A stretch of 64,000 nucleotides of DNA from Nitrospirota bacterium. GTDB taxonomy: Bacteria; Nitrospirota; Thermodesulfovibrionia; Thermodesulfovibrionales; JdFR-86. Position numbers and translations under genes: made by a program. The DNA lies in assembly GCA_963721805.1 (NCBI GenBank), contig CAVRJY010000001.1, forward strand, positions 1,312,001 to 1,376,000, in the 5' to 3' direction. This document shows positions 1-61,022 of the stretch, piece by piece. The notes under the pieces were generated by a model. The model ran no database searches. It had not been told where the DNA came from and saw only the letters and a program-made list of their open reading frames with translations. Position 1 is the stretch's first letter. Every line of letters starts with the position of its first letter.

Positions 1-8
1 TGAGTAAA

Positions 9-93
9 CGGAGAGGGTGGGATTTGAACCCACGGTGAGTTACCCCACACACGATTTCCAGTCGTGCTCCTTCGGCCGCTCGGACACCTCTCC
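9..93 (-). tRNA. tRNA-Ser(GGA)
   Basis: Reverse complement GGAGAGGTGTCCGAGCGGCCGAAGGAGCACGACTGGAAATCGTG...GGTTCAAATCCCACCCTCTCCG: acceptor stem GGAGAGG/CCTCTCC, anticodon arm CACGA-CTGGAAA-TCGTG, long variable arm, T-loop GTTCAAATC; CCA not encoded. Confidence 0.95.
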
Positions 94-131
94 AAAAAAA
101 CCTGAAAAATCAATAAAAAGCTTAGACGTGA

Positions 132-257: not shown

Positions 258-1025
258 TCATGTTGATCCTATCTTAATAACATTGGCACTGTTCCGCGCC
301 GAATATGCTTGGCTATGGCTATAAAATAGACCATAGAAAATATTGATATTATATCTATCAAGCAATTGTTTTTTGATTTCTCTCACATGGTAATTTCCGC
401 CTCCTGACAACATTAAAGATGGTGCAATATGATATGGTTTTGTTTTTAATGTTTGTCCATCAAATACCTTAGGTTTTAATTCATTCAGAAGCCCAATAAA
501 GCTGAACAGTAGTTCTGGAAATGGGTTTAAGTTTTTCACTTCACAAAATGATTTGAGATTACTATTGTCTACATAGCAATATTTACGACTTCCAGAGAAG
601 AAATATTTTGGATCAGTCAAATTTGTTATTGTTCCTTGGTTAATAATAGATATGTCAGGAGTAACGTAAATACCAGAAGATCGTCCTGAAGCCACCGTTA
701 AATTATGATGAATCTCGAAAATATGATTTGTTACAGTACCTTTATAAGTATATGTTTTCTGCGCGGTGAAATAGGAAAAATTACTAGGATATCCTGCTGG
801 GCTAAGTTTATATTTAAACTTACCATCAATTAGGTTGTTGATGGTTATAGAATAACCATTATTGTCATAATGCTTAACGACACTGTTATAGGCTGACATC
901 TCAAAATAGTCACTAATACGCTCGGCGTGATTTGAAATCGTTGCAGCATGTGCGCTAAGGAAATTAGAAATCTCATACTGGAGAAGGCGGATATCCTTAA
1001 ACGGGGACTTTGGCTTCCTTGCCAT
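258..1025 (-). CDS. hypothetical protein, putative PD-(D/E)xK nuclease fold
   Basis: 255 aa AT-rich ORF; TPDISII...FCEVKN resembles PD...(D/E)xK catalytic spacing. Confidence 0.55.
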   Translation of the reverse strand: MARKPKSPFKDIRLLQYEISNFLSAHAATISNHAERISDYFEMSAYNSVVKHYDNNGYSITINNLIDGKFKYKLSPAGYPSNFSYFTAQKTYTYKGTVTNHIFEIHHNLTVASGRSSGIYVTPDISIINQGTITNLTDPKYFFSGSRKYCYVDNSNLKSFCEVKNLNPFPELLFSFIGLLNELKPKVFDGQTLKTKPYHIAPSLMLSGGGNYHVREIKKQLLDRYNINIFYGLFYSHSQAYSARNSANVIKIGST

Positions 1026-1026
1026 A

Positions 1027-1440
1027 TTACGCTAACCCATCTAAAGAGGTCTTAAGCTTATAGAGAAAAGTCTTCACATCTGAATAATCAAATATGTAAA
1101 TTGGTAGTCCGAATGTCCCAAGGATCCCATAAAAATCATTCGCCATTGACTGTAACGTGTCAGCCTCTGTTTTAGTGAGTTCGTTTTGTCCAAATTTAAT
1201 AATTTGGATAGGAGGCCTATCAGTTAATGATCTTGCACCTGATTCTAAATAGGCAATTACTCTATTGTAGAAAATAGACATAGCAATAAGAAGTTCTATC
1301 GATTCACGCTTTTTTATCCATTGATATTTTCTAGGATTATTCTTTAAGAGAAACGCTAACTCCTTCATCCTAAAGTCATACTCAAATATTAGCTGCCCAC
1401 GTAAATAATATGGTAGTCCTTTACAGAATTGTCTTATCAT
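1027..1440 (-). CDS. hypothetical protein
   Basis: 137 aa AT-rich ORF with GAGG upstream; stop abuts start of the 255 aa ORF. Confidence 0.65.
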   Translation of the reverse strand: MIRQFCKGLPYYLRGQLIFEYDFRMKELAFLLKNNPRKYQWIKKRESIELLIAMSIFYNRVIAYLESGARSLTDRPPIQIIKFGQNELTKTEADTLQSMANDFYGILGTFGLPIYIFDYSDVKTFLYKLKTSLDGLA

Positions 1441-1662: not shown

Positions 1663-1895
1663 GACTTCTTGGTTTATCATCGCGCATGAGTAATAGCAAT
1701 ATGACACATATCATGTTAGGATTTGGCGAAAAGGGACACAATGAAGGTGAGCGCAGAACGAGGAAGGGAAGGGCGATGAAAGGAACCATGACAGAGGGGC
1801 GGGGCTACAGGCACACAATGGCTTGCGGAACTGCCTTTGGCCGCCCGGCTCCGGCATCCGAACAAAACCCCGAAAAACCGGCCAAAACATCCGAA

Positions 1896-2219
1896 CATCC
1901 GAACAGGGGGCGCGGAAAGAAATGAGTATTGTCGCAGGGTTAGCCCCGGTTTTGACCCAAACATCCGAACGGAAAATGCAAAAACGCGCGCACACGCGCG
2001 CGAAATGCGTATATATGCCTATGACTGGCCCTCAAATCATGTCGTTGACCTTGGGGGCGCGGGGGTCCAGCGGCTGGGCCGCATCTAACCCCCGAAAGCG
2101 CGAGAAATCGTGTCAGACTAGGAACGGCGAGCAGACCGCCCGGAGGTGTACTGTGATGTACATTGAGGACGAGGCTTCGAGCCGTGACAACGTATCACGC
2201 GAGTTTCGCGCGCTTTCAT
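1896..2219 (+). repeat. structured non-coding repeat, copy A
   Basis: Colinear with reverse complement of 10971-11285; 3' part bounded by inverted repeats gaaagcgcg...cgcgctttc. Confidence 0.85.
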
Positions 2220-2225
2220 TTCCAC

Positions 2226-2262
2226 TTGACAAAAGGGTCGACCTAAGTTATAATTATTACAA
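2226..2262 (+). promoter_or_regulatory. consensus sigma70 promoter overlapped by Per-box-like operator
   Basis: TTGACA 2226-2231, 17 bp, TATAAT 2249-2254; TTATAATTATTACAA 2248-2262 is one mismatch from the Bacillus Per box TTATAATnATTATAA. Confidence 0.85.
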
Positions 2263-2263
2263 G

Positions 2264-2692
2264 ATGAGAGAGCTTCTAAACAAGACCGGGATGAAGAAAA
2301 CTCCGCAAAGACTTGCGATTCTGGAGTTCCTGAAGGGTAATACCAGCCACCCTTCGGCCGAGGACATCTATGCGGCCGTGGTGGTAAAGTACCCGTCGAT
2401 GTCATTCGCGACGGTCTACAACACGCTCAACAAGCTCCGCGAGCACAGAAGCCTGCTGGAGCTGACGATAGAGCCGGGCCGCAAGCGGTTCGACCCGAAC
2501 CCGGCCCCGCACAACCACATGATCTGTACTAAATGCGGCAGGATCGAGGACATACACGAAAGCTTCTCGCTCGAGCTGCCGCGCGACGCGATGCTGGGAT
2601 TCAGGCTCACGGGGACGCACGTGGATTTCTACGGCGTATGCCCCTCATGCGACGAAAACGATACCACCAAGGGAGGCCCGATATGTGCGTAG
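2264..2692 (+). CDS. perR: Fur-family regulator, PerR-like
   Basis: TPQRLAIL, HPSAEDIY, ATVYNTL, HNHMICTKCG, GVCPSC; upstream of rubrerythrin. The ORF-track start at 1823 is too far upstream (alternative ATG at 2291). Confidence 0.88.
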   Translation: MRELLNKTGMKKTPQRLAILEFLKGNTSHPSAEDIYAAVVVKYPSMSFATVYNTLNKLREHRSLLELTIEPGRKRFDPNPAPHNHMICTKCGRIEDIHESFSLELPRDAMLGFRLTGTHVDFYGVCPSCDENDTTKGGPICA

Positions 2693-3117
2693 ACCATCGA
2701 GTGATCTGCAAGTGCGCGACGAATTCCGTGAGCTTCAACTTCCGCGACAACGTGATGCCGGAAAACGTGATCAGGGCTCTGTACTGCCCGCGCTGCTCGT
2801 CTGACCTCGCGTTTGACCCCGAGAGCATGGTGCGCGACAACACCTGGGTGATCGACTACGACATGGAGGTCGCTGAGTTCATGAAGCCCAAACTCCCGGC
2901 CGCCCGGATCACGCCGGAGTTCATATTCGACAAAGGCTATGCCACCTGGCGCGGCGTGTATCCGGGCGACGAGGTCGACTCGGCGCGCGAGCGCGAGGAG
3001 ATAGTGAAGCTCGCCAAAACCGATCCGAAGCGGTACTTCACGGAGTTTAAGACGTGGGCGGTAACCCGTATGGAACGCCTCAAGAGCGAAGGATGGAGGA
3101 AGGCGAATGAAGCTTGA
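2683..3117 (+). CDS. Cys-containing hypothetical protein
   Basis: GGAGG SD, MCVDHRVICKC...YCPRC; overlaps perR stop. Confidence 0.75.
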   Translation: MCVDHRVICKCATNSVSFNFRDNVMPENVIRALYCPRCSSDLAFDPESMVRDNTWVIDYDMEVAEFMKPKLPAARITPEFIFDKGYATWRGVYPGDEVDSAREREEIVKLAKTDPKRYFTEFKTWAVTRMERLKSEGWRKANEA

Positions 3118-3271
3118 AACCTTCGGTGAGACAGAGTTTCTCGTGCTGGTAGGCGTGGTCACGTGCCCCCGCTGCGGCGAGGACGTCGAGATCTGGAACG
3201 AGGGCTACGCGGAGGCGGTCTGCGATTATTGCGATTACAGGGTGTTCAGGAAAGAGCGCATCGTCCACTAG
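3107..3271 (+). CDS. small zinc-ribbon/rubredoxin-like protein (54 aa, not in ORF track)
   Basis: Manual translation MKLETFGETEFLVLVGVVTCPRCGEDVEIWNEGYAEAVCDYCDYRVFRKERIVH; two CxxC; GGAGGA upstream. Confidence 0.7.
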   Translation: MKLETFGETEFLVLVGVVTCPRCGEDVEIWNEGYAEAVCDYCDYRVFRKERIVH

Positions 3272-3314
3272 GCGCGCGCCTGAGAGCTAATAAATACAAG
3301 GAGGAAGCAATCAT

Positions 3315-3809
3315 ATGTCGAATTCCGAAGACGGGTTGAAGGCGGCGTTCGCCGGAGAGTCTCAGGCCAACAGGAAGTACCTCGCGTTCGCAAAACAGGC
3401 GGACAAGGAAGGCCTCAAGCAGGTCGCGAAGCTGTTCAGGGCCGCCGCGGAGGCCGAGACCGTGCACGCGAACAACCACCTCAAGGAACTCAAGGGCGTG
3501 AAGTTTACGCGCGAGAACCTCGAGGCCGCGATAGCGGGCGAGACATACGAGTTCGAGAAGATGTACCCTGCCTTCATCGAGGCCGCGCGCGCAGAGGCGA
3601 ACGAGGGCGCGCTGAGGAGCTTTAACTTCGCAAACGAGGTCGAGAAGATACATGCCGCGCTCTATAAAAAGGCGCTGGCGGAGATTGGCAAGAACGCAGA
3701 GACCGATTACTACGTCTGCCAGGTCTGCGGCAACACGGTAGAGGGCGAGGCCCCGGACGTGTGCCCCATATGCGGCGCGAAGAAACAGGCTTTTAAAAAG
3801 ATGGATTAA
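3315..3809 (+). CDS. rbr: rubrerythrin
   Basis: AFAGESQANRKY, EAETVHA, GETYE, VEKIH diiron motifs; C-terminal CQVCG...CPICG. Confidence 0.95.
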   Translation: MSNSEDGLKAAFAGESQANRKYLAFAKQADKEGLKQVAKLFRAAAEAETVHANNHLKELKGVKFTRENLEAAIAGETYEFEKMYPAFIEAARAEANEGALRSFNFANEVEKIHAALYKKALAEIGKNAETDYYVCQVCGNTVEGEAPDVCPICGAKKQAFKKMD

Positions 3810-3859
3810 GCGGCATGGGGGCGACTCCCCTCGTTCCCGGCCGTTAATCATTTCTCTAC

Positions 3860-3900
3860 ACGGGGGGAGCCTTCCCCCATCCCCAAATGGCTCCCCCCGT
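3860..3900. terminator. GC hairpin between convergent genes
   Basis: acggggggagcc...ggctccccccgt. Confidence 0.5.
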
Positions 3901-3920
3901 CCCTCCCCCCTTAGGGGGCG

Positions 3921-4460
3921 CTATCTGCCTCGATAGGAGTCTGAGTGATCCCGGTGTTTGGTCCAGTTGTCGGCGTAGAGCCGCGCGAGCCCGGCGTTTT
4001 TGATCATCAGCAGGTTCTCTGCGTTGTTCGTCTCGGCCGCGAAGGTGAAGTTGAAGCTCCCGGTTATGACCGTCAGCCGGTCGATGACCATGACCTTGTT
4101 GTGCGCGATCTCGTGGGCGTCGTCGATATACGTCCTGATCCCGGCATGGGCGAGGAAGTCCAGCGACGAGTAGCGCTCGGTCCGGTTGCTCCTGTCGAGG
4201 ATCACCTCGACACGGAGCCCTCTCTTGCGGGCGTCGGCGAGTGCCTTCGCGATCTCGCGGCTGGTGAACGAGAAGGCCTGTACCAGGACCTCCGTGCGCG
4301 CGGCCTCGATCTCATGGACGATGTATCGCGTGCACCCGCCGCCGGGGCTGAAGCACACGCGCGCAGGGGTGTTGTTGAGCGTGAGGTCAGCGGGATAGGC
4401 CGCCGGAGGAAGACAGAGAAGCAGCGACAGCAGGGCGCATGCGGATATACGGTTCAGCAC
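3921..4460 (-). CDS. phospholipase D-family nuclease (Nuc-like), exported
   Basis: Signal peptide, FSPGGGC, single HNKVMVID...TGSFNF HKD motif. Confidence 0.9.
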   Translation of the reverse strand: MLNRISACALLSLLLCLPPAAYPADLTLNNTPARVCFSPGGGCTRYIVHEIEAARTEVLVQAFSFTSREIAKALADARKRGLRVEVILDRSNRTERYSSLDFLAHAGIRTYIDDAHEIAHNKVMVIDRLTVITGSFNFTFAAETNNAENLLMIKNAGLARLYADNWTKHRDHSDSYRGR

Positions 4461-4466
4461 GGGCGC

Positions 4467-4814
4467 TTATTTCTCATCGAGGTGGAACCTGTGCAGGAAG
4501 CGGTGATATACGGGGGCGAACAGTACGCCGACGAATGTCAGGAACGCGACCCCGCTGAAGAGTGCATAGAAGGCAGCGAAGAGCTTTCCGCCCTCTGATT
4601 CCAGATGGTCCACCGGGCCCATGCCGGTCAGGATCATCGAGGCGTTCAGGAACGAGTCGGTCCAGCCGAGGCCGCCCCAGACATGATACCCGAACATCCC
4701 GAGACCGAGCGAGAACCCCAGGATGAGGCACGAGAATCCCGCGTATCTCAATTGGCGGGCGGCGAAATCCCTCTTGCTCCGAAGCGGCTGGCTATGGTGT
4801 TCGAACATGTCCAC
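4467..4814 (-). CDS. small 2-TM ion-channel-like membrane protein
   Basis: TM - WTDSFLNASMILTGMGP pore-like segment - TM. Confidence 0.7.
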   Translation of the reverse strand: MDMFEHHSQPLRSKRDFAARQLRYAGFSCLILGFSLGLGMFGYHVWGGLGWTDSFLNASMILTGMGPVDHLESEGGKLFAAFYALFSGVAFLTFVGVLFAPVYHRFLHRFHLDEK

Positions 4815-4883
4815 CTCCGCGGCAATTGTAACACGCCTGAGACCGCGAGACGCAGACTGGGAAGGGCAGGATGCGGCCGGGCG

Positions 4884-5306
4884 CTATCTGGCGTTTGCCT
4901 TGAGCGCGGCGTCGAAGGTTGTGAGCTTTCCCTTGTGGAGCTTTATGAACTCAAGCGCGCCGGAGCGGCTCGCGAACGCGACCGTGCTGATGCTGCTCAT
5001 CACGGGAGGGGCGTCGCTGCCGATGACATAGTAAGCTGTCTTTGCGTCAGTGAGATCTGCCGAGAGGTAATCGGCCACCTTGATGTCCACGGCGCCGGAG
5101 GCGTGCTCGCTAACATATTTGGAGACGCAGGCGAAGCTGCAGAATTTAAGGGTCGAGTGGTCACTGGTCTCGATCACGAGACGGGTGTGCATGTTCTGGT
5201 CTATCCACATCCCGCATACCGCGCAGTCTTCGCGCCCGGGCCCCTCGGCGGCGAGGGACCCGGCCATGAGCATTATCGTTAGCAGCGTTATGGCAATCAC
5301 GCGCAT
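4884..5306 (-). CDS. NosL-family protein
   Basis: Signal peptide, CAVCGM, FCSFAC, AYYVIGSD. Confidence 0.8.
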   Translation of the reverse strand: MRVIAITLLTIMLMAGSLAAEGPGREDCAVCGMWIDQNMHTRLVIETSDHSTLKFCSFACVSKYVSEHASGAVDIKVADYLSADLTDAKTAYYVIGSDAPPVMSSISTVAFASRSGALEFIKLHKGKLTTFDAALKANAR

Positions 5307-5337
5307 CGGGCATTGTCCTGTCAGCGGGCGGGGAGTG

Positions 5338-5793
5338 TTATTTCCCCATTTTCATGCTCTCGGGTTCTTTGGCCCTGCGCTTGAGAGCATCCTTGAAGTC
5401 GAGGACCTTGCCGCCGAAGCCCTTTACGAACTTATGCGCCTCGTCCTTTTTCGCGAATGCTATCCAGCTCGGGGCGCACGCCGGCGTGGCCGAGCTGCCC
5501 ACGACGTAGTACATCTTGGCCGGGTCCGTCCACTCGCCGCTTATGAAGTCGCGAGCGCGTGCGGATTTAATCTTGTCCTTCTGCCCGGCCTGCACCCAGA
5601 GTCCGCAGTGCGGGCAGCAGTACATCGAGACCTTGCCGTCGGTGAAGGTGATCTCATATGCGGTGTTTTGGTTCTCGTCCATGTTCATCCCGCACTGGGC
5701 GCACTTGCCCATGTCCCCGGCGGCGAAGGCCGCGGTTGCGACGAACATCAGCGACACGGCGATCAGAAATGCTACGGCTAACTTCTTTCCCAT
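5338..5793 (-). CDS. NosL-family protein
   Basis: Signal peptide, CAQCGM, YCCPHC, YYVVGS, FVKGFGG. Confidence 0.8.
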   Translation of the reverse strand: MGKKLAVAFLIAVSLMFVATAAFAAGDMGKCAQCGMNMDENQNTAYEITFTDGKVSMYCCPHCGLWVQAGQKDKIKSARARDFISGEWTDPAKMYYVVGSSATPACAPSWIAFAKKDEAHKFVKGFGGKVLDFKDALKRRAKEPESMKMGK

Positions 5794-5980
5794 ATGCCCT
5801 CCTTAAAGTTCTGGTTATAAGACTTCACCCGATGGCTCATTATAGGGGAGGTTGCATGGGCTTGCAATAAGAATTTTAGAGATGGCATTGGCGGGGTTGG
5901 CCTGTCATGCGTTGAAGGTGCATGCCAGAGGCTGTTGCCTCTTGATAGCGCCGCGCATTTGGAAGTATCATGAAGTTATT

Positions 5981-6595
5981 ATGAGTGACCGCTTGAAATC
6001 CGGCCCCGATGGATTCCGGGCTATCCACGATGAATTCCGCGGGCGTATCCATCGGTATCTGTGCCGGATGGTCGGCGAGGCCGAGGCGGAAGACCTTACA
6101 CAGGAAGTGTTCATCAAGGTCGACAAGGCATTGCCCGCATTCCGGGACGAGTCTTCGGTCTCCACGTGGCTTTACAGGATCGCGACGAATGCAGCGCACG
6201 ATCACATGCGAAGCGCCTCCAGCCGGCACGAGTCGCTGCATGCTGAGTTGTCCGATATGGACGACGCCATGGCGAGCGAAGGATATGGCGGTGGCGCGCT
6301 CCACCTGGACGCAGCGTTGATTCGCAAGGACATGAATGACTGCATACGCGGCATCGTCGACAGCCTGCCGGAACCGTACAGGACGTCGCTCGTTCTGTGC
6401 GACATCGAGGGGCTGACGAACGCCGAGGTCGCCGAGGTTACGGGCATCTCCCTGGATTCCGTCAAGATAAGGCTCCATCGGGCTCGGACAAAGCTCCGAA
6501 TAGAAATGGAAAAGAAGTGTGTCTTCTACCGCGATTCTCGAAATGAACTGGCCTGCGACCGAAAACCTGTCAAGCTGAACCTCTCAGTAAAATAA
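5981..6595 (+). CDS. ECF RNA polymerase sigma factor
   Basis: AEDLTQEVFIKV, STWLYRIATN, region 4 EVAEVTGISLDSVKIRLHRAR; C-terminal CVFYRD...ACDRK tail; likely start MSDRLK. Confidence 0.9.
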   Translation: MSDRLKSGPDGFRAIHDEFRGRIHRYLCRMVGEAEAEDLTQEVFIKVDKALPAFRDESSVSTWLYRIATNAAHDHMRSASSRHESLHAELSDMDDAMASEGYGGGALHLDAALIRKDMNDCIRGIVDSLPEPYRTSLVLCDIEGLTNAEVAEVTGISLDSVKIRLHRARTKLRIEMEKKCVFYRDSRNELACDRKPVKLNLSVK

Positions 6596-6844
6596 TTGTA
6601 TCTTTTCCCTCCCGGCTGCGTTTGCAGTGTGTCACCATTATCGCTAGGCAAGGAATTCCACGCCAGGTAGATACCAAAGACGAGCAGGCCATTCGGCACA
6701 GGGCCTGGCATCCGTAAGGGTGGACACATGGTCCGGTTTGCCGGGCTTCCATGGCATTAAACATCGTAGATAAGTCCGGACGGATTCTTTCTGTTGCTTT
6801 TATACTATATATACTCTAAAATTATTCGTTTATGAGGAAACAGT

Positions 6845-8041
6845 TTGAAATATAAATTATTCGCGGCGGTCCGTTCCCTACGCACTGTGTCCATCGCAGC
6901 CATGATCGTAATTTGCTCTCTTATTGCCGTCTCGGCCTCGGCTGCGCAGAAGAGGCCCGCTGGCACCAAAGCCCCGGCACTCCCGGCCGGGAAGGGTGAG
7001 GTCTGGACATTCGGCGTAAACGATTCGGGTCAGTACGGCGATGGCTCGACGTTGAAAAAGGACAGGTTCGTCAAGGCGCTTGGCCTCGACGGCGTGGTCG
7101 ACCTCGCTGCAGGACAGAAACATGTCCTAGCACTGAAATCCGACGGGACCGTCTGGGCATGGGGATGGAACTTCAAGGGCCAGGTCGGCGACAACTTCAA
7201 CCCTAACGCTACCGAGCCTGTGGAGGTCACGGGGCTGAAGGACGTCGTCGCGGTTACCGCCGGGATGTATCATTCCGCAGCTCTCAAAAAAGACGGCACC
7301 GTATGGTGCTGGGGCAGAAACTACTACGGACAGCTCGGCAACCGCCAGGGCGGCAGCAGCAGGATGGACGACAGCGCGCTGCCCGTACAGGTCACCGGGC
7401 TGGGCGGCGTCGTGCAGATCGCGGCAGGATGGTATCACACCCTTGCGCTGACGAGGGATGGCAAGGTCTGGGCATGGGGCTGGAACTCCAAGGGACAGAT
7501 AGGCGTGACCAACTTGTACAAGGCGTCCCAGCCTGTCGAGGTTGCCGGCCTGAGTGATGTGACAAAGGTCGCGGCCGGGATGTACCATTCGCTCGCTATC
7601 ACGAAGGGCGGACAGGTGGTCGCCTGGGGCGCCAACGACCACGGCCAGCTGGGCGACGGGACGGACATCGACAGCAGCGTACCGGTCGAGGTGGCGGGGC
7701 TGACGGACGCGGTGGACATAGCCGGGGGCGTCCACCACAGTATCGCGCTTAAGCGGGACGGTTCGGTCTGGGGCTGGGGCGGCAACGACTACGGGCAGCT
7801 CGGTCCCGGATCGCTGAACGTCGCGGACGCGCCGGTCCGAATAACGACCCTGCCGTCGGGGATAATCGCGCTTACGGCCGGTGCGCATGACTCCTCGGCG
7901 CTCACGCGCGACGGCTCGCTCTGGATGTGGGGGTTGATCAACAACGGCACTCTCAGCATATCCGCGCCCAGGCGCATCAACGCGCCAGAGGGCATAACAA
8001 AGATATCCTCGGGATTGAATTTCATAACCGTGATCAGATGA
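6845..8041 (+). CDS. exported RCC1-repeat beta-propeller protein
   Basis: Repeated AAGxxHxLALKxDGxVWAWGxNxxGQLG units after a signal peptide. Confidence 0.9.
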   Translation: MKYKLFAAVRSLRTVSIAAMIVICSLIAVSASAAQKRPAGTKAPALPAGKGEVWTFGVNDSGQYGDGSTLKKDRFVKALGLDGVVDLAAGQKHVLALKSDGTVWAWGWNFKGQVGDNFNPNATEPVEVTGLKDVVAVTAGMYHSAALKKDGTVWCWGRNYYGQLGNRQGGSSRMDDSALPVQVTGLGGVVQIAAGWYHTLALTRDGKVWAWGWNSKGQIGVTNLYKASQPVEVAGLSDVTKVAAGMYHSLAITKGGQVVAWGANDHGQLGDGTDIDSSVPVEVAGLTDAVDIAGGVHHSIALKRDGSVWGWGGNDYGQLGPGSLNVADAPVRITTLPSGIIALTAGAHDSSALTRDGSLWMWGLINNGTLSISAPRRINAPEGITKISSGLNFITVIR

Positions 8042-8062
8042 TCGGAGGTTGCGCGGGCTGAG

Positions 8063-8314
8063 TCAGTGCGCTGTGGCGAGTGTCCCGGCGCCGTATGCGT
8101 GCAGCTCAGAGAACATGCGGCTCAGGCATGCGGGGCATATGCCGTGGGTCACCGCCCCGCGGGCATCGGCCGGGCCGAATCCCCAGCTTCCGTCATCGCC
8201 CCTGGTCCGCCTGCACCACGCGCATGCGGTGATGAACTCCTCCTGCCTGTCGATGAACCCTGCTGAAGCGTTCGCTCCGGCTGCCGGTGCACCTATGTTC
8301 CCTGTCTCGATCAC
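8063..8314 (-). CDS. small CAWC...HGICPxC metal-binding protein
   Basis: ITACAWCRRTR...VTHGICPAC. Confidence 0.6.
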   Translation of the reverse strand: MIETGNIGAPAAGANASAGFIDRQEEFITACAWCRRTRGDDGSWGFGPADARGAVTHGICPACLSRMFSELHAYGAGTLATAH

Positions 8315-8396
8315 GCCTATCTAATCGGCCAGGCGTGGGGGAAACTTTAATCCGAAGCGGCCTCAGGCGGCCATTATGCGCCTGCCTCGGGCCGCT

Positions 8397-9182
8397 CTAC
8401 TTTCCGAGCACGTCGCTCAGGAACTCGCTTGCCATCTTCCACGACCTCTTGTCCGCCAGGGCGTTGTATGCGGCTCCCTTGGAGTTGTCGGTCCCGGCGC
8501 TCTCGTCAGTGAACGAATGCACCGCGCCTCCGAAGTAAACCATCTGCCAGTCGACGTGCGCGGCCCTGAGCTCGTCCTGAAACGCGGCTATGTCCTTGGG
8601 GGAATTAAACGGGTCGTCGGCCCCGTGCAGGATAAGGATTTTGGCCTTGATGTTCTTGCCGTCTTGCGGGGTGGGGCTGTCAAGCACGCCATGGAAGGTC
8701 ACGACCGCCTTCAGGTCCGCCCCGGAGCGCGTGAGTTCGAGCGCGGTCAGGCCGCCGAAGCAAAACCCGATGGCACCGATCCTTGACTTGTCCACCCCCT
8801 TGAGCGCCCCGATCACGTCGAAGGCCGCCTTCGCATGCCTTCTAAGCAGGGTGCGGTCGGCCTTGAATTTGCCCGAGATCGCCGCGGCCTCGGTGGCGTC
8901 TTTTGGCCTTATCCCATTGCCGTATATGTCAGCTACGAAAACGATGTAGCCCATCTCCGCCAATAGCTTGGCGTGTTTCATCTCGTTGTCCCCCGGGCCC
9001 ATCCATGCATGGAACACGAGCACGGCGGGCCTGCTGCCCTCAAACTTGTCGTCCTTGACGACCTTACCCTCGAACTTCTCGCCGTGGTTCAGGTACTTCA
9101 GCGGCTTTACTATAATCTCGGCAGACGCCGGGACGGCCATGGCCGCTATCAACACAAAAGCTAAGAGTATCCGCATCGTCAT
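8397..9182 (-). CDS. dienelactone hydrolase family protein
   Basis: GFCFGG nucleophile elbow, HGADD, AVHSFT; signal peptide. Confidence 0.92.
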   Translation of the reverse strand: MTMRILLAFVLIAAMAVPASAEIIVKPLKYLNHGEKFEGKVVKDDKFEGSRPAVLVFHAWMGPGDNEMKHAKLLAEMGYIVFVADIYGNGIRPKDATEAAAISGKFKADRTLLRRHAKAAFDVIGALKGVDKSRIGAIGFCFGGLTALELTRSGADLKAVVTFHGVLDSPTPQDGKNIKAKILILHGADDPFNSPKDIAAFQDELRAAHVDWQMVYFGGAVHSFTDESAGTDNSKGAAYNALADKRSWKMASEFLSDVLGK

Positions 9183-9239
9183 TTATGCCTCCTTTATTTT
9201 TAGAAGATAGCGCGGCTGCGCTGAATTGTCAATGCGCAA

Positions 9240-10928
9240 TCACGGCATGCCGGCCCACCTTGCGGCCTCGCGGTTGTGCGGGTCCATCGAGAGGGCCCTG
9301 GCGAAGGCCGCGCGGGCCATGCTCCTGAGCCCGCGCTCGTAGTAGATCTGACCGAGAGAGACGTAGTTGTCCGCGTTTTTCGGGTGCAGCTCGATACTGC
9401 GCGTGACGAGCGATTGCAGCAGTTCCCATATCGAGCTTTTCTCTATCGTCCGCCCGGCCAGGGGCGTGCGCACGAACGCGACGCTGCCGAGGTCCCAATA
9501 GACCGGGCTCCACCCGTCGTCCTTCAGCAGCGCGAGCACGATCGGCGAGACGTTGCCCTTAAACGGTAACAGGGGCCAGAAGACAACGGTGTTGACCTTG
9601 TATTTATCCAGTACGGCCTGCCAGCCGGGCGCGGCGTCGGCCACCGTGTCGTAGTCGTCAAAGGAGTTTCTGCTGTCGATGAACGCGCGGTAATGCGGGT
9701 AAAGGGCCCAGATCATGTAACCGCCCCATTCGTATGGGTGGAAGATGTTTGCGGGGGGCCTGTCCGCCAGGATGAACTCCGCGGTCTTCGAAGGGATCAG
9801 GGTCTCGGGCAGCACTGGCTGCCTGACGATGCTCCGCGGGACCAGCCACAGCGCGATCAGCGCAACGAGCCCGGCGGCGAGCGGGATATGAAGGAGCCTT
9901 GCGCGGACGCGGCCATCCCCCGGCGCGAGGTTCCCGGCAATTATGGCGGTCCCGAACAGCGACAGGAACAGGCCGGCCCTGAACGTGGTCAGGGAGGCGT
10001 ACGCCAGCCCAGCGAAGGCCACCGCATATAGCCAGTCGATGCGCCGTTTTCTTAGCGCCGCCCATACGAACGAGGCCGCGCCGAGGGCAATGAACGCGAG
10101 CATCTCGAAATAGAGGTAGTGCTGCCCGGTGAACTCCGTGAATTCTTTAAGCGGCAGTATCTCGTGGATCGTCGCATGGCCCGTGGCCGCGGTATGGAAT
10201 ATCCCGGCGGCCGTCATATAGGCGGCCGGGCCGTTGGGGTTTAGCGCCGAGCATGCGAGCGCGCCAAGCGCGGCCAGGATGAAAAACCGCTTCTCCCCGC
10301 GCGGGTGGCCGCTGAGGAAAAGCTCCCACGCGGCATAGAGGCATATGATCCCCCCTCCGCTTACGTAGCCCGGATGCATGTTCGACCAGATGAGCATCAT
10401 CGGCAGCAGCCAGAGTATCGGCCTGTACCGCCGCCCGGCGCCCGCCTCGAGCCTCCAGCTTTCGAGCAGGTACAGAGTGGCCGCGAAAAACGCGATAGAG
10501 ACCGTCTGGGGCCTGATCTCGTCAAACTCGGTGCAGATGGCGATCATCGGCAGCATCAGCAGGTAGCTCAGCGGCGGCCTCAGGCCGTGCCTGCCAATGA
10601 GGTGGTGGATGAAACAGAAGGCAGTTACGAAGATCGAGGACTTCAGCGCGATCAGGCCGTAGAAACCGAGGTAATGCTGGACCAGATAGAAGATCACCTG
10701 CGCAAGCCAGAAGGCGCGCAGGACGAATGGCGTGGGGGCGTAAAACGCTATCGAGAAATCGTCCGTCTGGGGGATCGCCATACGCTGCCAGATGAGCTCG
10801 CCGGTCTTGAGGTGCCACCAGACGTCGCCGAGTTCCATCTGGGTCAGGAACGCCAGAGATGCCGCGCTCCAGAAGATGACCGCAGAAAGGCGGGAGACAT
10901 ATGTCCAATTACGCTCGCTAATCATCAC
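9240..10928 (-). CDS. polytopic membrane protein with C-terminal TPR (GT-C-like)
   Basis: DVWWHLKTG, RPQ, WSNMHPG, YEWGGY, FIDSR motifs; many TM helices; terminal TPR. Confidence 0.75.
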   Translation of the reverse strand: MMISERNWTYVSRLSAVIFWSAASLAFLTQMELGDVWWHLKTGELIWQRMAIPQTDDFSIAFYAPTPFVLRAFWLAQVIFYLVQHYLGFYGLIALKSSIFVTAFCFIHHLIGRHGLRPPLSYLLMLPMIAICTEFDEIRPQTVSIAFFAATLYLLESWRLEAGAGRRYRPILWLLPMMLIWSNMHPGYVSGGGIICLYAAWELFLSGHPRGEKRFFILAALGALACSALNPNGPAAYMTAAGIFHTAATGHATIHEILPLKEFTEFTGQHYLYFEMLAFIALGAASFVWAALRKRRIDWLYAVAFAGLAYASLTTFRAGLFLSLFGTAIIAGNLAPGDGRVRARLLHIPLAAGLVALIALWLVPRSIVRQPVLPETLIPSKTAEFILADRPPANIFHPYEWGGYMIWALYPHYRAFIDSRNSFDDYDTVADAAPGWQAVLDKYKVNTVVFWPLLPFKGNVSPIVLALLKDDGWSPVYWDLGSVAFVRTPLAGRTIEKSSIWELLQSLVTRSIELHPKNADNYVSLGQIYYERGLRSMARAAFARALSMDPHNREAARWAGMP

Positions 10929-10970
10929 CGCAAATTATACCAATTCATACGCATTAATCTGCTCACTTTC

Positions 10971-11285
10971 ATGAAAGCGCTCCAAATCGCTTGATACGTC
11001 GTTGGGCATCGAAGACTCGCCCTCTATGTACGTCACAGTACACCATCGGGCGGTCTTCTTGCCCTGCCTTGTCTGAAGCCGATTTGGGCGCGCTTTCGGG
11101 GGGCACGAAAAAAGGTCGCCCCCCGCGCCCCACAAGGTCAACGGCATGATTAGAGGCTTAGCTATATACATAACTTACCGCGCATGCGCGCGCGTATTTT
11201 TTTAGAGAGTTCAAATGAACAAACAAAACATGTCTTAACCCTGCGGATTTCATCGCTTTTTTGGCCGCCCCAGTGTTCATGCGTT
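10971..11285 (-). repeat. structured non-coding repeat, copy B (inverted)
   Basis: Reverse complement shares ordered blocks with 1896-2219. Confidence 0.85.
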
Positions 11286-11490
11286 CAGAAACGCTTTTGA
11301 CCGCTCCATCGGCCTGCTGGCTAGCCTTCCGCGCCCTCAAAAATACCCATCCGAGCATCATGCCGTATTGAAGCACAACGATATATGAAAAAGCGATAAA
11401 CTATGGTTTATATATAAACCGAAGGCTATAGGAAAAATTCATATCCGTGCGTTTTCTACTAACTTTCGACTAACTGAAGTTAATGAACGG

Positions 11491-12417
11491 TCAGAGCCGC
11501 TTCGCATTTTTCCAGAGCATTTGCAGGTGTTTTGGAAGGGTGACGTCGTAGGTCTCATAGCTGCACTTGTAGTCCTTGCATGTGAAGGCCCACCATTTCT
11601 TGGCGCCTCCCTGCTTGTCGAAAAGCTGCAACAGGTGCGGCCCGTTCTTCGATGGCGGGAGCAGCCGGGTCTCGACCTTTGTGTTTTCGGTCAGCCCCTC
11701 GTTCGGAAACGAATATTGGATGAACGTATCGAAATCATCCGGTTTCCCGGAGTAATTGAATTCATATACGTGCTCGCCTCCGGAGAACTCTATGGGAGTC
11801 AGAAATATGTTTGGATCGCACTCGATGCAGCTTGAGTGCCTGACGAAAACGGCCTTCTTTCCCCTGTCCTCGCCGAAATCCGTGATCGCATGGACCGTGC
11901 CGTCGAGGTACGATCCCGCGTACGTGGCCTTATACCTGCCCCCGGCATATTTGAGCTCCCAGAGGCTCAGGTACGGGTATTCGTAGGTCTTGCTTATCTC
12001 GGCATACCCGACCACCAAATCCGGCACGCCGTCTCCGTCGAGGTCCGAGACGTAGAAGGCGAGGTTGTCCTGCTTGAGCGTCGGCGCAAGCCCGGCAATT
12101 GCCTGCCTCAGTTCGCCTATGGCCCTCTTGTTGCATACGTTGGAGTAGAGGTTGAACCTCCAGTCGCTCGTAGGCTTAAACGTAGGGCGGGCCTTCCATA
12201 CGAGGACCGAGCCGATGACGCACTGTTTGACCGAGGCCGTCCTCATCGCCGAGGCTGCGATGTTTCGCAGCCTCGCGTGCACAGAGGGGTCCTGGACCGT
12301 GAAGGGCGAGTTTTCCCTGTAGTTCGGCGCATCGGATAAGAGCTTCCCGATCTGCAGCGCGCCCGCGTTAGCCGGGATCAGCAGGCTGACAAGGACTATA
12401 ACCATAAAATACCGCAT
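11491..12417 (-). CDS. exported hypothetical protein
   Basis: Signal peptide; DLDGDGVPDLVVG Ca-binding-like loop; paired Cys. Confidence 0.7.
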   Translation of the reverse strand: MRYFMVIVLVSLLIPANAGALQIGKLLSDAPNYRENSPFTVQDPSVHARLRNIAASAMRTASVKQCVIGSVLVWKARPTFKPTSDWRFNLYSNVCNKRAIGELRQAIAGLAPTLKQDNLAFYVSDLDGDGVPDLVVGYAEISKTYEYPYLSLWELKYAGGRYKATYAGSYLDGTVHAITDFGEDRGKKAVFVRHSSCIECDPNIFLTPIEFSGGEHVYEFNYSGKPDDFDTFIQYSFPNEGLTENTKVETRLLPPSKNGPHLLQLFDKQGGAKKWWAFTCKDYKCSYETYDVTLPKHLQMLWKNAKRL

Positions 12418-12671: not shown

Positions 12672-13409
12672 ATGGAAAAACGATTACAGAAGATACTCGC
12701 GGAGATGGGCGTGGCCTCTAGGCGCCACGCGGAGGAGATTATCGAGGAAGGCCGCGTGACCGTAAACGGCGCGGTCGCCACTATCGGGATGAAGGCCGAC
12801 ACCGAGCGCGACCACATCAAGCTTGACGGAAAGCTCTTAAACAAGGTCGAGCCCAAGGTCTACTACGCTTTCCACAAGCCGGCCGGGGTCGTGACCTCGG
12901 TCTCGGACCCGGAGGGCAGGCCGACGGTCATGGACTACCTGGGCAAGATCAAATACCGCGTCTATCCGGTCGGGAGGCTCGACTTCGACTCCGAGGGTCT
13001 GCTGCTGATCACGAACGACGGCGAGTTCGCCCACGCGGTGCTGCACCCGACGCACAAGCTCCCCAAGCTCTACATGGTCAAGGTCAAGGGGCTGGTCGAG
13101 GACGATGACGTCTTAAAGCTCAGCCGGGGCATCAAGCTCGACGACGGCGTCACGGCCCCGGCCAAGGTCAAAAAGCTAAGAAAATTTCAGGAGAACTCCT
13201 GGATCGAGGTCACCCTCTATGAGGGCAAGAAACGGCAGATACGGCGAATGCTTAACAAAGTAGGCCACCCGGTCATCAGGCTCAAGCGCATTGCTGTCGG
13301 GCCGATAGCGCTCGGCGAACTCGCGCCCGGAGGGCTCCGGCCCCTGAGGGCGGAGGACGTCCGCGCGGTGCTCAAGTGGGCGGCCGCTGGCGAGAAGGAG
13401 GCTAAATGA
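12672..13409 (+). CDS. rluB: 23S rRNA pseudouridine synthase (RluB/RsuA family)
   Basis: S4 domain [32 protein letters not shown]. Confidence 0.9.
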
Positions 13410-15194
13410 GGCGCGACATGGGATGCGGCGATGTGCGTGAGACCGCGATAGGCAGGGAGCTTGCGGTCTCGGGCTGGGTGTTTCGGAGGCGCGACCACGG
13501 CGGACTGATATTCGTTGACCTCCGCGACCGGAGCGGGCTTCTGCAGGTCGTCTTCAGCCCCGATGTCTCGGCCGAGGCGCACGCGCTCGCGCATGACCTT
13601 AGATCCGAGTTCGTGATAAGCGTCATCGGCGAAGTCCGCCACCGCCCCGAGGGCACGGTGAACGCCGAGCTCCCGACCGGCGCGGTCGAACTCTACGCCA
13701 GCCAGCTAGTAGTGCTCAACCGCTCGGCCGCGCTCCCGTTCATGGTCGAGGACGCCGGGGATACCTCCGAGGCGCTTCGGCTCAAGCACCGCTACCTCGA
13801 CCTCCGCCGCCCCGAGATGCAGCACAACCTGATACTCCGCCACCGCAGCGTCAAGGCGATGCGCGACTACCTCGACGAGCGCGGGTTCATCGAGATCGAG
13901 ACCCCGATGCTCACAAAGAGCACCCCGGAGGGCGCGCGCGACTATCTCGTACCGAGCCGGCTGAACCCCGGACTGTTTTATGCGCTGCCGCAGTCCCCGC
14001 AGCTTTTCAAGCAAATTCTCATGGCCTCCGGGATCGAGAAATACGTACAGGTCGTCAAGTGCTTCCGCGACGAGGACCTCCGCGCCGACCGCCAGCCCGA
14101 GTTCACGCAGGTCGACCTCGAGATGTCGTTTATAGACCGCGAGGACATCATCACCCTGATCGAGGGGATGATGAAGGAGCTGTTCAAGCGCGTGCTCGAC
14201 GTCGATGTCGCAGACGCCGTTTCTGCGTCTTTCGCACAAAGACGCGATGGAGCGCTTTGGCTCTGACAAGCCTGACATGCGCTTCGGCATCGAGCTTTGC
14301 GAGATGGCCGATCTCGCGGCTCAGGGCACGTTCAAGGTATTCCTCGACGCTATAAACTCCGGCGGCCGCGTTAAGGCGATACTCGGAAAGGGCATGGCCG
14401 GGATGTCGCGCAAAGAGGTCGACCTGCTCACGCAGGAGGCCCAGGGCTTCGGGGCCAAGGGCCTGGCCTGGATAAAGGTCAAAGACGGCGGTTTCGACTC
14501 GCCGATAGCGAAGTTCTTCCCCCCCGAGACGCTCGGCGCGATGGCCGCGAGGCTCGACGCTAAGGACGGGGATATCATGCTCTATATAGCGGACCGCGAG
14601 GCGGTCGTGCTCGACGTCCTCGGCCGCATGAGGCTCGAGCTCGCGAAGCGCCTCAATATGGTTAGCGAGGGTTTTAATTTCCTCTGGGTCGTTGACTTCC
14701 CGCTTCTCGAGTGGGACGATGAGGAGGGCCGGTTTAACGCGATGCACCACCCCTTCACCTCCCCGCGCGACGAGGATGTGGCGGCAATGATGGCAGGTAG
14801 CGTTACCGATAAATCGGCGCTTGGCGCCCTTCAGGCCAAGGCCTATGACATCGTGCTTAACGGCTTCGAGATCGGCGGCGGGAGCATCCGCATACACCGC
14901 CCCGAGGTGCAGGAGAAGATGTTCGAGCTTCTGGGGATCGGCGAGGAGGACGCGCGCGTGAAGTTCGGGTTCCTCCTGGACGCGCTTCAGTACGGCGCTC
15001 CGCCGCACGGGGGCCTCGCGCTCGGGCTCGACAGGCTTATGATGCTCATGGTCGGGGCGCAGTCGATCCGCGACGTGATCGCGTTTCCCAAGACGCAGAA
15101 GGCCGCGTGCATGATGAGCGGCGCGCCTTCCAACGTATCCGAAAAGCAGCTGCGCGAGCTCCACATAAAGCTCGACGTGGTCACGGAGGAATAA
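13406..15194 (+). CDS. aspS: aspartate-tRNA ligase (frameshift ~14210)
   Basis: [47 protein letters not shown]; two overlapping ORFs. Confidence 0.95.
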
Positions 15195-17730: not shown

Positions 17731-18786
17731 CCGCATAAGGAAGAAGATCGCCGCGGGCCGCAGGCTCGACGGGCAGGATGCGCTCGAGCTCTTCTCGACC
17801 GCCGACATCCATTCGCTCGGCGAGCTCGCGTCCGAGGCCGCCCGCCGCATAAACGGCAACCGCGCGTACTACGTCCGCAACCTCCACGTAAACCCCTCAA
17901 ACCTCTGCGTCAACAGGTGCAGGTTCTGCGCCTTCAGCCGCTCCGAGGGCGAGGAGGGCGCATACGAATTCGATAACAACGAAATCATAAAACGCATACG
18001 CAAGGCAGGGCCGATCTCTGAGGTCCATATCGTAGGCGGCCTGCACCCGAGCTGGCCCTTCGAGCATTATGACGAAGCTCCTAAGCCGTATCACGCAAGG
18101 CCTTCCCGGCCCTGCACATAAAGGCATTCACCGCGACAGAGATCGACTACTTCAGCCGCATAAGCGGCCTCTCGATAGAGGACGTGCTGCTGAGGCTCAA
18201 GGCCTGCGGGGCTCGATTCGATGCCCGGCGGCGGGGCCGAGATATTCTCTTTGGACGTGCGTAACGCGCTCTGTCCCGAGAAGCTCTCAAGCGAGGGCTG
18301 GCTCGCTGTGATGCGCACCGCGCACGGTCTGGGTATCAAGAGCAACGCGACGATGCTCTACGGCCATACCGAGAGCCCCAGCCACCGCGTTGAACATCTC
18401 ATGCGGCTGCGCAGCCTTGCAGGACGAGACCGGAGGGTTTCAGGCCTTCATCCCGCTTGCCTACCACCCGCATAACACCGAATTAGGAGGCTCGGTCGGC
18501 TCGCGGACTCGATGACCTGCGCACTACCGCTGTCAGCCGCCTCGTGCTGGATAATTTCAGGCACATCAAGGCCTACTGGGTGATGCTCGGCCCTAAGCTC
18601 TCTCAACTGGCTTTATTGTTCGGAGCGGACGACCTCGACGGCACGGTCATAGACGAGCGCATCACGCTCGCGGCCGGGGGCAAGAGCGGGCAGGGCATCA
18701 CGGCCGATACGCTCGTGAACCTGATCAAGCGCGCCGGGCGCAGGCCGGTCGAGCGGGACTCCTACTATAAGGCGGTGAAGCGCTGA
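17717..18786 (+). CDS. mqnE: aminofutalosine synthase, radical SAM (several frameshifts)
   Basis: CVNRCRFC, EVHIVGGLHP, PGGGAEIF, SNATMLYGH, HIKAYWVM. Confidence 0.85.
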
Positions 18787-19875
18787 TGGCATTCGGCCGC
18801 ATCGACAGGGACGACGCGCTGGAGCTGCTGAAGTACGGCGAGCTCCTGAACCTCGGCCGGGGGGCTGACCTGATGCGCCGCGCCCTGCACCCCGAGGGGA
18901 TCGTGACGTTCGTGATCGACCGCAACATCAACTATACGAACGTCTGCATCAACAAGTGCAAGTTCTGCGCGTTCTGGCGCGAGGAGGCGCAAGAGGGCGG
19001 CTACGTCCTCGGGCGCGACGAGCTGTTTAAAAAGATAGAGGAGACGATCGCGCTCGGCGGCACCCAGATACTGATGCAGGGCGGGATCAACCCCTGCGCT
19101 CGGTATCGATTATTACATCGACCTCCTGCGCTCGATCAAGGGCCGCTTCAAGATAAACATACACGGGTTCTCCCCGCCCGAGGTCGTCCATATCGCCTCA
19201 CAGCTGCCGGTCTGAGCGTGCGCGATACGATCATAGCTGAACTCAGGCGCGCCGGGCTCGACTCGATCCCCGGCGGCGGGGCCGAGCTGCTAAGCGACCG
19301 CGTGCGCAAGCGCATCAGCCCGAACAAGATACGCACCGACGAGTGGCTGGTGTCATGCGCGAGGCCCATCGTTCGGTATGCGCACGACAGCTACGATGAT
19401 GTTCGGCATAGGCGAGAAGCCCGCTGATATCATCGAGCACCTCGACCGCATACGCACGCTTCAGGACGAGACCGGCGGGTTTACGGCCTTCATCCCGTGG
19501 CCCTTCCAGCCCGGCAATACCGCATACGAGGGCAAGATCGAGACCGCGACCGCGGCCGAATACCTGCGCGTGCTCGCGGTATCGAGGCTGTATCTGGACA
19601 ACGTCCATAACGTGCAGGCCTCGTGGGTGACGCAGGGGCTGAAGGTCGCGGAGGTCGCGCTCCGCTTCGGCGCGAACGATCTGGGCTCGACTATGATAGA
19701 GGAAAACGTAGTGGCCTCCACCGGCGTCAGCAACAGCGTCACGATGGACGAGATGGTCGCCGCGATTCACGCCGCCGGCTTCCGCGCGGCCCAGCGCGAT
19801 ACGCTCTACAATCTGCTTAGGGAGTTCCTCGCAAGGAGGATGGATAGATGCCCGATACGCTTTATGACGTGGTGA
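18786..19875 (+). CDS. mqnC: cyclic dehypoxanthinyl futalosine synthase (frameshifted; end approximate)
   Basis: DRNINYTNVC...CKFC, GGTQILMQGG, TTATMMFG, NVQASWVTQG, GSTMIEENVV. Confidence 0.85.
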
Positions 19876-60911: not shown

Positions 60912-60974
60912 GGCGCGTTCCTTTCCGGGCTGTTCACGGCTGGCATTGCAGTCCCAAGCACTCTGCTTAACATC

Positions 60975-61003
60975 AGCGTACGCCAATATTTGAGAGGTGT
61001 CAA
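60975..61003 (-). promoter_or_regulatory. candidate sigma70 promoter of cooS
   Basis: Minus strand TTGACA-17 bp-TACGCT. Confidence 0.55.
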
Positions 61004-61022
61004 TTTGCATGGCCGGTCAATA

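Follow-up and report, generated by a model that had tools for sequence, protein, structure and literature searches.

Two diverged copies of a non-coding element, here called copies A and B, lie in inverted orientation near the left end of a 64,000-nucleotide stretch of the genome of a Nitrospirota bacterium (contig CAVRJY010000001.1 of assembly GCA_963721805.1, positions 1,312,001 to 1,376,000), which we refer to as the window. Our analyses make it likely that the two copies are independent members of a lineage-restricted family of non-coding interspersed repeats, with at least 11 loci on what is, judged by its length, the same contig. In behavior the family can be likened to transposable elements of the miniature inverted-repeat kind (MITEs), repetitive extragenic palindromic (REP) elements, and enterobacterial repetitive intergenic consensus (ERIC) elements, and we do not place it in any of the named families.

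The similarity of the two copies is clear at the nucleotide level. A blastn search of copy A against the whole window returned a single non-self match, in which 1980-2219 (+) aligned with 11199-10971 (-) at 72.8% identity over 243 nt (E=3.4e-31), and all remaining matches in the window had E values of 0.07 or above. A repeat search recovered the pair as inverted arms of 93 nt (80%) and 44 nt (77%), and the longest exact run common to A and B is 14 nt. A third copy in the 64-kb window was absent by blastn and by nhmmer with a profile of both copies, the next nhmmer match having an E value of 3.1. The initial annotation had described two stretches of ~320 bp that share 10 ordered blocks, point inward, and end ~45 bp before a start codon, just ahead of a TATAAT box; all 10 blocks are present where it placed them and keep their order in a MAFFT alignment, and the positions of both ends were borne out. 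The distal part of the element (1896-1975 in A and 11205-11285 in B) is weaker in the direct comparison of the two copies, and its homology is established through other members of the family, whose translations match 1790-2239 and 11346-10926 in tblastn. These translations come from predicted proteins (numbered with the prefix P) that cover copy A at 1790-2227 (P0015), 1799-2203 (P0013), and 1833-2239 (P0008). The left limit of copy A is a minimum, as weak similarity may extend to ~1705, and the distal edge of copy B, at ~11378, was set by a VLQYGM translation in common with P0008. Both copies in the window are intergenic.

How widely is this element dispersed? Other copies were traced through predicted-protein collections with a chance open reading frame (ORF) of copy B (78 codons, inward strand, 10938-11171) as the query. 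In a set of 5.8 billion proteins, this ORF matched six other "proteins" of 63 to 113 aa with 71 to 81% identity (E values from 1e-21 to 1e-28). These six were combined with the part of copy A that is in frame into a profile, and an exhaustive search of 1.84 billion cluster representatives gave 23 matches at E≤1e-3. Of these, 19 read as translations of the element, and the remaining 4 were proteins of 939 to 4339 aa in which several stretches matched weakly. When 20 members were aligned and used as the query of a word-indexed search, 25 proteins were returned, 24 besides the window's own ORF. Ten of the 25, including the window's own ORF, are located on a contig of 1,547,165 bp, and were assigned to the window's own contig by this identical length; contigs of 655,836, 352,515, and 97,308 bp account for two each and those of 148,608 and 13,697 bp for one each, while the rest are on contigs of less than 7 kb. 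Copy A is outside the 25, since its frame continues into the perR-like gene. Counted this way, there are at least 11 loci on the window's contig (nine others plus A and B), and this number is a lower bound because only copies with a called ORF in one frame are visible to such searches. All element translations matched the window at the two copies only (tblastn), and one member, P0019, carries two partial 3' arms in tandem.

As a matter of database content, at least 24 "proteins" of 63 to 434 aa (P0002-P0020, P0023, and P0026-P0029) are translations of the non-coding repeat, and in one of them, P0029, translation through the element has added a spurious N-terminal extension of 70 residues to a protein of the alanine-dehydrogenase family. 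The 19-nt core of the hairpin apex, ATGTACNTCACAGTACACC, was also scanned over 185,579 species-representative genomes and hit seven loci (L001-L007) in unrelated taxa, all of which we rejected as family members, since they are chance matches whose similarity ends at the seed. Plasmid and phage collections yielded no match to copy A in the distant mode of blastn, and no candidates emerged when the second inward frame of copy B served as a protein query. No paper describing such an element was found in the literature, which is a weak negative, as the search was framed around a Desulfovibrio-like host guessed from gene content.

Different copies of the element read the same DNA in three frames, meaning that conservation acts at the DNA level and not at the protein level. 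A segment beginning CCCCCGAAAGCGCGCCCAAATCGG is read as PPKARPNRLQ (PPKARPNRLQTRQ) in P0001 and most other copies, whereas P0023 and P0016 show it as PRKRAQIVFR or PIKRAQIVFR and P0018 as PPESAPKSSSDKAG, and P0013 changes frame locally. Of the 16 indels that separate A from B, 11 have lengths not divisible by 3, and a manual count over 30 gap-free codons gave 3 synonymous versus 13 nonsynonymous changes. A small basic protein family of ~160 to 177 aa (P0008, P0012, P0013, P0015, P0026, and P0028), with A and B as frameshifted pseudogenes, would account for the 6 of 10 ORFs on the window's contig that stay open for 160 to 177 codons across the whole unit. However, these six can be explained by descent from an open master copy together with ORF-based detection, which favors open copies, and related copies inherit the open frame. 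The element ORFs also have unrelated N- and C-terminal tails of variable length, no Pfam domain was found in the 11 longest of them, and the substitutions between A and B appear neutral. Together with the use of three frames, this brings the protein family close to exclusion.

Another question is whether the two copies belong together. The initial annotation had proposed that they delimit a composite or invertible block with a stress/metal cargo, either a composite transposon bounded by the two copies or a segment that inverts by recombination between them. The setting invites such a view: the copies are inverted and 8.7 kb apart, a PerR-like gene, rubrerythrin, NosL, and an ECF sigma factor lie between them, and a low-G+C island with a tRNA-Ser gene is immediately to the left of copy A. 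Yet copy B is closest to P0010, P0008, and P0002 (79 to 84% translated identity), the hairpin of copy A groups with P0020 (67%) and P0016 (56%), and its distal part is nearest to P0013 (52% over 139 aa), compared to only 43% translated identity between A and B. Since A and B are each closer to other members than to each other, they are separate family members rather than a local inverted duplication, and the family is mosaic, with different affinities for the parts of copy A.

The remaining evidence on the block points in the same direction. The copies are non-coding and no transposase domain was found in the block, whereas a composite transposon has its cargo between two insertion sequences, at least one of which encodes a transposase; in the window as a whole, Pfam detected no transposase, integrase, or invertase domain in 23 ORFs of one scan and 48 of another (greedy non-overlapping ORFs of at least 80 aa plus some alternatives), in agreement with the initial annotation, which had seen no transposase or recombinase there. 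Inversion would have to proceed with no recombinase domain in sight and between copies of 73% identity, whose longest identical run, 14 nt, is too short for homologous inversion to be efficient. No flanking direct repeats were seen, and the G+C content of the block (0.55 to 0.66) is that of the rest of the window, including the next 9 kb. For 11 random sites on 1.55 Mb, 0.67 pairs are expected within 9.4 kb, and the probability of at least one such pair is ~0.49. With different subtypes, a 14-nt run, native G+C content, no recombinase found, and a spacing that chance would give about half the time, nothing ties the copies to each other or to the intervening genes, and the 8.7 kb between them would be ordinary chromosome between two insertions that face two convergently arranged promoters. 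Scattered copies with no link to the block were the very outcome that the initial annotation had named beforehand as telling against the bracket. With at least nine further copies on the same contig and closer relatives elsewhere, the bracket is close to refuted. What stands of the initial annotation is its wider suggestion of an undescribed non-autonomous mobile element or structured RNA family, with strong predicted folds, many copies at unrelated loci, and no match in Rfam 15; the choice that it left between the two is taken up below.

The unit measures ~410 to 520 nt across the family. Copy B has ~408 nt, and copy A, with additional CATCCGAAC-containing sequence relative to B, has 430 nt or more. 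From its distal to its proximal end, it is made up of a region of (C/T)(C/T)GAAC motifs, an A-run with a GC hairpin, a less conserved TATATA stretch, AATCATGYCGTTGACCTTG, a G5/C5 hairpin, and a hairpin of ~125 nt (Table 1); a short hairpin, AATCATGYCGTTGACCTT, is located between the GC hairpin and the G5/C5 hairpin. The CATCCGAAC motifs of copy A have counterparts at matching places in copy B (CTGAAC, TGAAC, and TTGAAC), and the translations IRTSEQ and TSEQ of this region recur among other copies. The A-run and GC hairpin are also kept in other copies, according to the translations QKRARTRAEC and LKKYARACAVS. The apex sequences of the G5/C5 hairpin are unrelated between A and B. Whole-element folds of both copies on both strands have z-scores of -2.8 to -5.9 compared to shuffled sequences, with copy B reaching -5.9 on the outward strand and -5.4 on the inward strand. 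TGTAC-N6-GTACA, the palindrome at the apex of the long hairpin, has two matches in the window, both at the copies, versus 0.41 expected, and in other copies its loop varies but the stem codons stay (CTVTY, CTETY, CTWAY, and CTEMY). The proximal end is sharp: every translation diverges immediately past ...L[EAV]RF, corresponding to GCGCTTT at the base of the long hairpin.

Two further observations concern the form of the repeat. A subfamily of four members (P0012, P0017, P0018, and P0023) has ~8 extra codons (...GRLALSSGEVPVAPRWC replacing ...QGEKTARWC) in the 5' arm of the long hairpin only, implying a side branch or bulge in that arm. At 1608-1663, there is a near-perfect inverted repeat of 27+27 nt with a 24-nt perfect palindromic core, GGAACTGGTTCC/GGAACCAGTTCC, and six GGAAC/GTTCC motifs. 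The translation of this stretch (TPPRNWSIGTGSQEPVPMVQFRL...) is found again in P0014, upstream of a different copy of the element. Either the repeat has a longer form, to which this stretch may belong as an additional module, or it may represent a second repeat family.

Table 1. Features of the two repeat copies, their adjoining promoters, and neighboring genes (window coordinates)
Feature	Position	Strand	Basis and remarks
Copy A of the repeat unit	1790..2219	+	blastn against B; tblastn of other copies' translations; inward, hairpin end toward perR-like gene
Copy B of the repeat unit	10971..11378	-	blastn; P0014 matches 11346-10926; inward, hairpin end toward TPR membrane-protein gene
Four exact CATCCGAAC motifs, distal part of copy A	1855..1970	+	All four exact matches fall here
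GC hairpin, copy A, 7 G-C pairs, then TTTTTGCATT	1975..2002	-	Terminator scan; terminator-like on the outward strand only
GC hairpin, copy B, five to six G-C pairs, then TATTTTTTT	11179..11204	+	Terminator scan; terminator-like on the outward strand only
G5...C5 hairpin, variable apex, copy A	2061..2093		Folds of both strands
G6C...GC6 hairpin, variable apex, copy B	11098..11124		Folds of both strands
Terminal long imperfect hairpin, copy A, ~124 nt, GAAAGCGCG...CGCGCTTTC	2094..2217		Folds: -47.4 kcal/mol outward, -52.3 inward
Terminal long imperfect hairpin, copy B, ~125 nt	10973..11097		Folds: -66.6 outward, -64.8 inward
Apex palindrome TGTAC-N6-GTACA, copy A	2147..2162		Motif search
Apex palindrome TGTAC-N6-GTACA, copy B	11027..11042		Motif search
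Consensus sigma-70 promoter TTGACA-17-TATAAT of Fur/PerR-family gene, outside repeat	2226-2254; ATG 2264	+	Promoter scan
PerR/Fur-box-like 7-1-7 site TTATAATTATTACAA, outside repeat, overlapping -10 box	2248-2262	+	One mismatch to box; sole site in window
Extended -10 TGgTATAAT (ends 10934) with GTG 10928/ATG 10925 of TPR gene, outside repeat	10925..10942	-	Sequence, ORF, Pfam
Other block contents: PerR-like gene; conserved hypothetical gene; small zinc-ribbon ORF; two ORFs without family			Pfam/NCBIfam
Rubrerythrin	3315-3809		Pfam/NCBIfam
NosL	5338-5793	-	Pfam/NCBIfam
ECF sigma factor	5852-6595		Pfam/NCBIfam
RCC1-repeat protein, 398 aa (beta-propeller)	6845-8041		Pfam/NCBIfam
Dienelactone hydrolase	8397-9182	-	Pfam/NCBIfam
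tRNA-Ser(GGA)	8-94	-	Adjoins low-G+C island

Where the neighboring gene is known, the sharp end of the element keeps a nearly constant distance from the gene that it faces. With the final T of GCGCTTT as the reference, the distance to the start codon is 47 nt at copy A (ATG of the perR-like gene), 45 or 48 nt at copy B (GTG or ATG of the TPR gene), and 42 nt, or 14 codons, in the fused ORF P0029, where MVIGVPKEIK begins a protein of the alanine-dehydrogenase/PNT family. The hairpin end is thus 42 to 48 nt upstream of a start codon and facing the gene in all three loci with a known neighbor; three cases are too few for statistics, and the constant spacing is the most unusual feature found. The gene downstream of copy A belongs to the Fur/PerR family (Pfam FUR, E=2e-28), its best NCBIfam match being PerR, under the cut-off. 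The gene downstream of copy B encodes a 562-aa membrane protein with C-terminal TPR (9240-10928) and has a further ATG at 10900. The -10 boxes of the two genes end 9 nt (A) and 5 to 8 nt (B) before the start codon, so near that both genes look leaderless, and the element thus abuts their minimal promoters. The tails of many other element ORFs become AT- or TA-rich 12 to 17 codons past the element end, which is compatible with -10 boxes and proves nothing.

The site overlapping the -10 box of the perR-like gene differs by one base from the 7-1-7 Fur/PerR-box consensus and is probably an autoregulation site of this gene. In a search of the whole window, the perR promoter was the one place with such a site and copy B had none, which gives no support to a shared control of the two copies by PerR. 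The constant position upstream of genes could instead mean that the element is a reiterated cis-regulatory module, in which TGTAC-N6-GTACA, whose distance to the predicted start sites downstream is ~106 nt, and the more distal GAAC repeats would bind a transcription factor, or act as -35-like elements for an ECF-type sigma factor, that co-regulates the downstream genes; alternatively, an inward promoter could make a long structured leader. Besides position and orientation, which are fixed in three of three known cases, such a module would fit the palindrome half-sites, which are kept as the 6-nt spacer varies among copies, and the ECF sigma-factor gene inside the block (5852-6595). The GAAC-N16-CGCGC spacing is identical in A and B, and by translation in P0005, and could be read as an ECF-type promoter. 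However, the equal spacing in A and B stems from homology and is not independent, no GAAC-N16-CG motif was seen upstream of the ECF sigma gene, and scans of both copies predicted no inward sigma-70 promoter or terminator inside the units. Moreover, the palindrome is the mere apex of a ~125-nt hairpin that is kept at full length, which is unexpected for an operator, and the downstream genes (a PerR-like regulator, a TPR membrane protein, and an alanine-dehydrogenase-family enzyme) are functionally unrelated. We consider a regulatory module quite improbable.

The terminator-like hairpins with T-runs offer a different clue. They occupy homologous places in both copies on the outward strand only (- in A, + in B), where there is no gene for them to end, and this arrangement would favor an outward transcript of ~240 to 260 nt. 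Does the family then consist of paralogous small RNA (sRNA) genes, each producing a structured RNA of ~230 to 260 nt that runs outward, divergent from the neighboring gene, and ends at the GC hairpin and U-run? The strong folds and the variable-apex hairpin on its conserved G5/C5 base would agree with such genes. At perR, the arrangement would parallel oxyR-oxyS, a divergently transcribed regulator/sRNA pair: copy A stands back to back with a peroxide-regulator-like gene, has an outward terminator, and has a possible outward promoter (2280-2253) over the operator-like site of the regulator (2248-2262), through which the two could be co-regulated. Unlike oxyS, the element adjoins unrelated genes elsewhere, lacks a conserved promoter, and is far longer than OxyS. 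Conservation ends at the base of the long hairpin, exactly where the outward promoter should be, with no promoter region common to the copies and none predicted outward for copy B, whereas ~200 nt past the terminator are also conserved across copies, which an sRNA gene does not explain. Neither G-U counts nor fold energies favor the outward strand, and no Rfam family matches: the Rfam check called for by the initial annotation found only tRNA-Ser at gathering thresholds across the whole window, and permissive scans of 1700-2400 and 10800-11500 gave only sub-threshold chance matches with a best E value of 0.39. Paralogous sRNA genes are therefore unlikely in our judgment.

A related idea, to which we give a similarly low chance, is that the elements are promoter-docking modules of an undescribed class: promoterless and non-coding, located ~45 nt upstream of leaderless genes, they would turn divergent transcription from a symmetric -10 region into a structured RNA of ~250 nt ended by their own terminator. 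The product could be a hitch-hiking sRNA family or the element a mobile transcriptional insulator, and at perR, it could be co-controlled by the peroxide regulator.

The interspersed-repeat reading, which we prefer, can be put as follows. The family would have spread as a non-autonomous mobile or duplicative element, settling beside promoters, where its likely effect is mainly structural. The outward GC hairpin and T-run would stop divergent transcription from the AT-rich promoter region, resulting in a highly structured RNA of ~240 to 260 nt, and transcripts reading through from upstream would be blocked or processed at the long hairpin. The case for mobility consists of the dispersal of the copies and their sharp boundary.

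Compared to known elements, the repeat has the short, non-coding, multicopy, and intergenic character of MITEs: its copies in the window measure ~408 nt (B) and 430 nt or more (A), one contig holds at least 11 loci, and 25 copies were detected through ORFs in public data. Bacterial MITEs, among them the Neisseria Correia element, QMITE1 from Coxiella, and Chunjie from Geobacter, are described in PMC10969869 as non-coding elements under or near 500 bp with tens of copies, intergenic and often directly upstream of genes, whose copies vary in size and sequence and whose predicted transcripts fold into very stable stem-loops; in all these respects the repeat is similar. The terminal inverted repeats of MITEs are given there as ~4 to 30 bp, and none were found in either copy. 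The repeat further differs from MITEs in that no target-site duplication, expected at least in young copies, was seen by eye, its G+C content is ~0.5 to 0.55 and not AT-rich, its palindrome is confined to one end of the unit instead of spanning it, and no related insertion sequence or transposase is known for it.

REP elements and REPINs are short (~20 to 40 nt) GC-rich palindromes, often paired, high in copy number, and associated with RAYT, and ERIC has a size of ~127 bp, close to that of the repeat's ~125-nt hairpin. With REP/BIME (PMC2817692) and with ERIC, the repeat shares dispersed imperfect palindromes in intergenic DNA, and with the pneumococcal element that resembles a Rho-independent terminator, SPRITE (PMC10969869), a built-in terminator-like hairpin. 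It does not qualify as a REP or REPIN, having a unit of more than 400 nt with a single ~125-nt hairpin and no Y1-transposase domain in the window. Unlike REP/BIME and ERIC, the unit is 3 to 4 times longer and asymmetric, with ~300 nt of non-palindromic conserved sequence on one side, its copy number appears lower, and no RAYT-type transposase was seen.

Several results weigh against the repeat as a mobile and transcribed unit. With regard to mobility, the ends of copy B gave an end-to-end inverted-repeat score of 12, reached by 10 of 500 shuffles, with a match that is internal and not terminal, and those of copy A a score of 8, reached by 328 of 500 shuffles, the distal ends being approximate. 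By eye, the two copies show no target-site duplication, although they are old and their distal boundary is imprecise; the age is seen in the 43 to 84% translated identity among copies. No cognate transposase was found in the 64-kb window. The other copies are known by translation and not by DNA, and their ends, orientation, and neighbors are known for three loci only. From the scan for the apex core, the family is therefore rare among species-representative genomes, or the host genome is absent from that set. With regard to transcription, no sigma-70-type promoter for the element itself was predicted on either strand of copy B, and the outward promoter-like site of copy A, TTTAGA-16-AATAAT with a TG, is only a 9-of-12 match. 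Hairpin energies and G-U counts favor neither strand. When the fold of A was mapped on B, 5 changed pairs were kept and 12 broken, and in the reverse direction, 3 were kept and 10 broken; these counts compare only two DNA copies, between which compensatory changes are few, with 3 kept against 12 broken for the fold of A on B, and partly reflect register shifts in a two-sequence alignment. Bases deduced from the translations of other copies (by parsimony toward B) gave 33 kept and 42 broken pairs inward and 5 kept and 70 broken outward, which we discount, as third positions are invisible in translations and any compensatory change concealed there would count as G-U.

Apart from the repeat, the surrounding region has several features of its own. 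The ECF sigma gene is followed by the RCC1-repeat gene (5852-8041), with NosL divergent upstream, an unusual partner where an anti-sigma factor is expected. The sole compositionally foreign stretch of the window is to the left of copy A, at 100-1500, with a G+C content of 0.34 to 0.41 versus ~0.60. It contains two ORFs, 258-1025 (-) and 1027-1440 (-), of 255 and 137 aa, with no match in Pfam, NCBIfam, or PADLOC, and its composition and position beside a tRNA gene make it look like a horizontally acquired insert. PADLOC likewise returned no match for eight unknown proteins of the region. Several genes, some of them essential-looking, appear split, in four parts of the window: an aspartyl-tRNA synthetase (13406-14266 and 14205-15194, within 13406-15194), an MqnC/CofH-like radical-SAM enzyme in three pieces, a hybrid-cluster protein in two, and a molybdopterin oxidoreductase in two, possibly with an in-frame TGA for selenocysteine; the other three regions are 18544-19875, 58958-61010 (-), and 61114-63178 (-). 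The splits could be assembly indel errors, pseudogenes, or recoding. If they are assembly indel errors, some small indels between copies could be artifacts as well, leaving the main conclusions unaffected.

For the biology of this lineage, the first consequence is the removal of a false lead, in that neither mobility nor invertibility is shown for the perR-rubrerythrin-NosL-ECF block. The family is also of value for annotation, as a repeat absent from Rfam has been turned by gene callers into hypothetical proteins of 60 to 290 aa, with at least 24 public entries. Interspersed repeats do not usually show so constant a placement as that of its hairpin end, 42 to 48 nt before the starts of genes that appear leaderless. 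Should this placement prove true genome-wide, it would offer a way to study how promoter regions are selected or shaped by such elements in an anaerobe whose transcripts have seen little experimental mapping.

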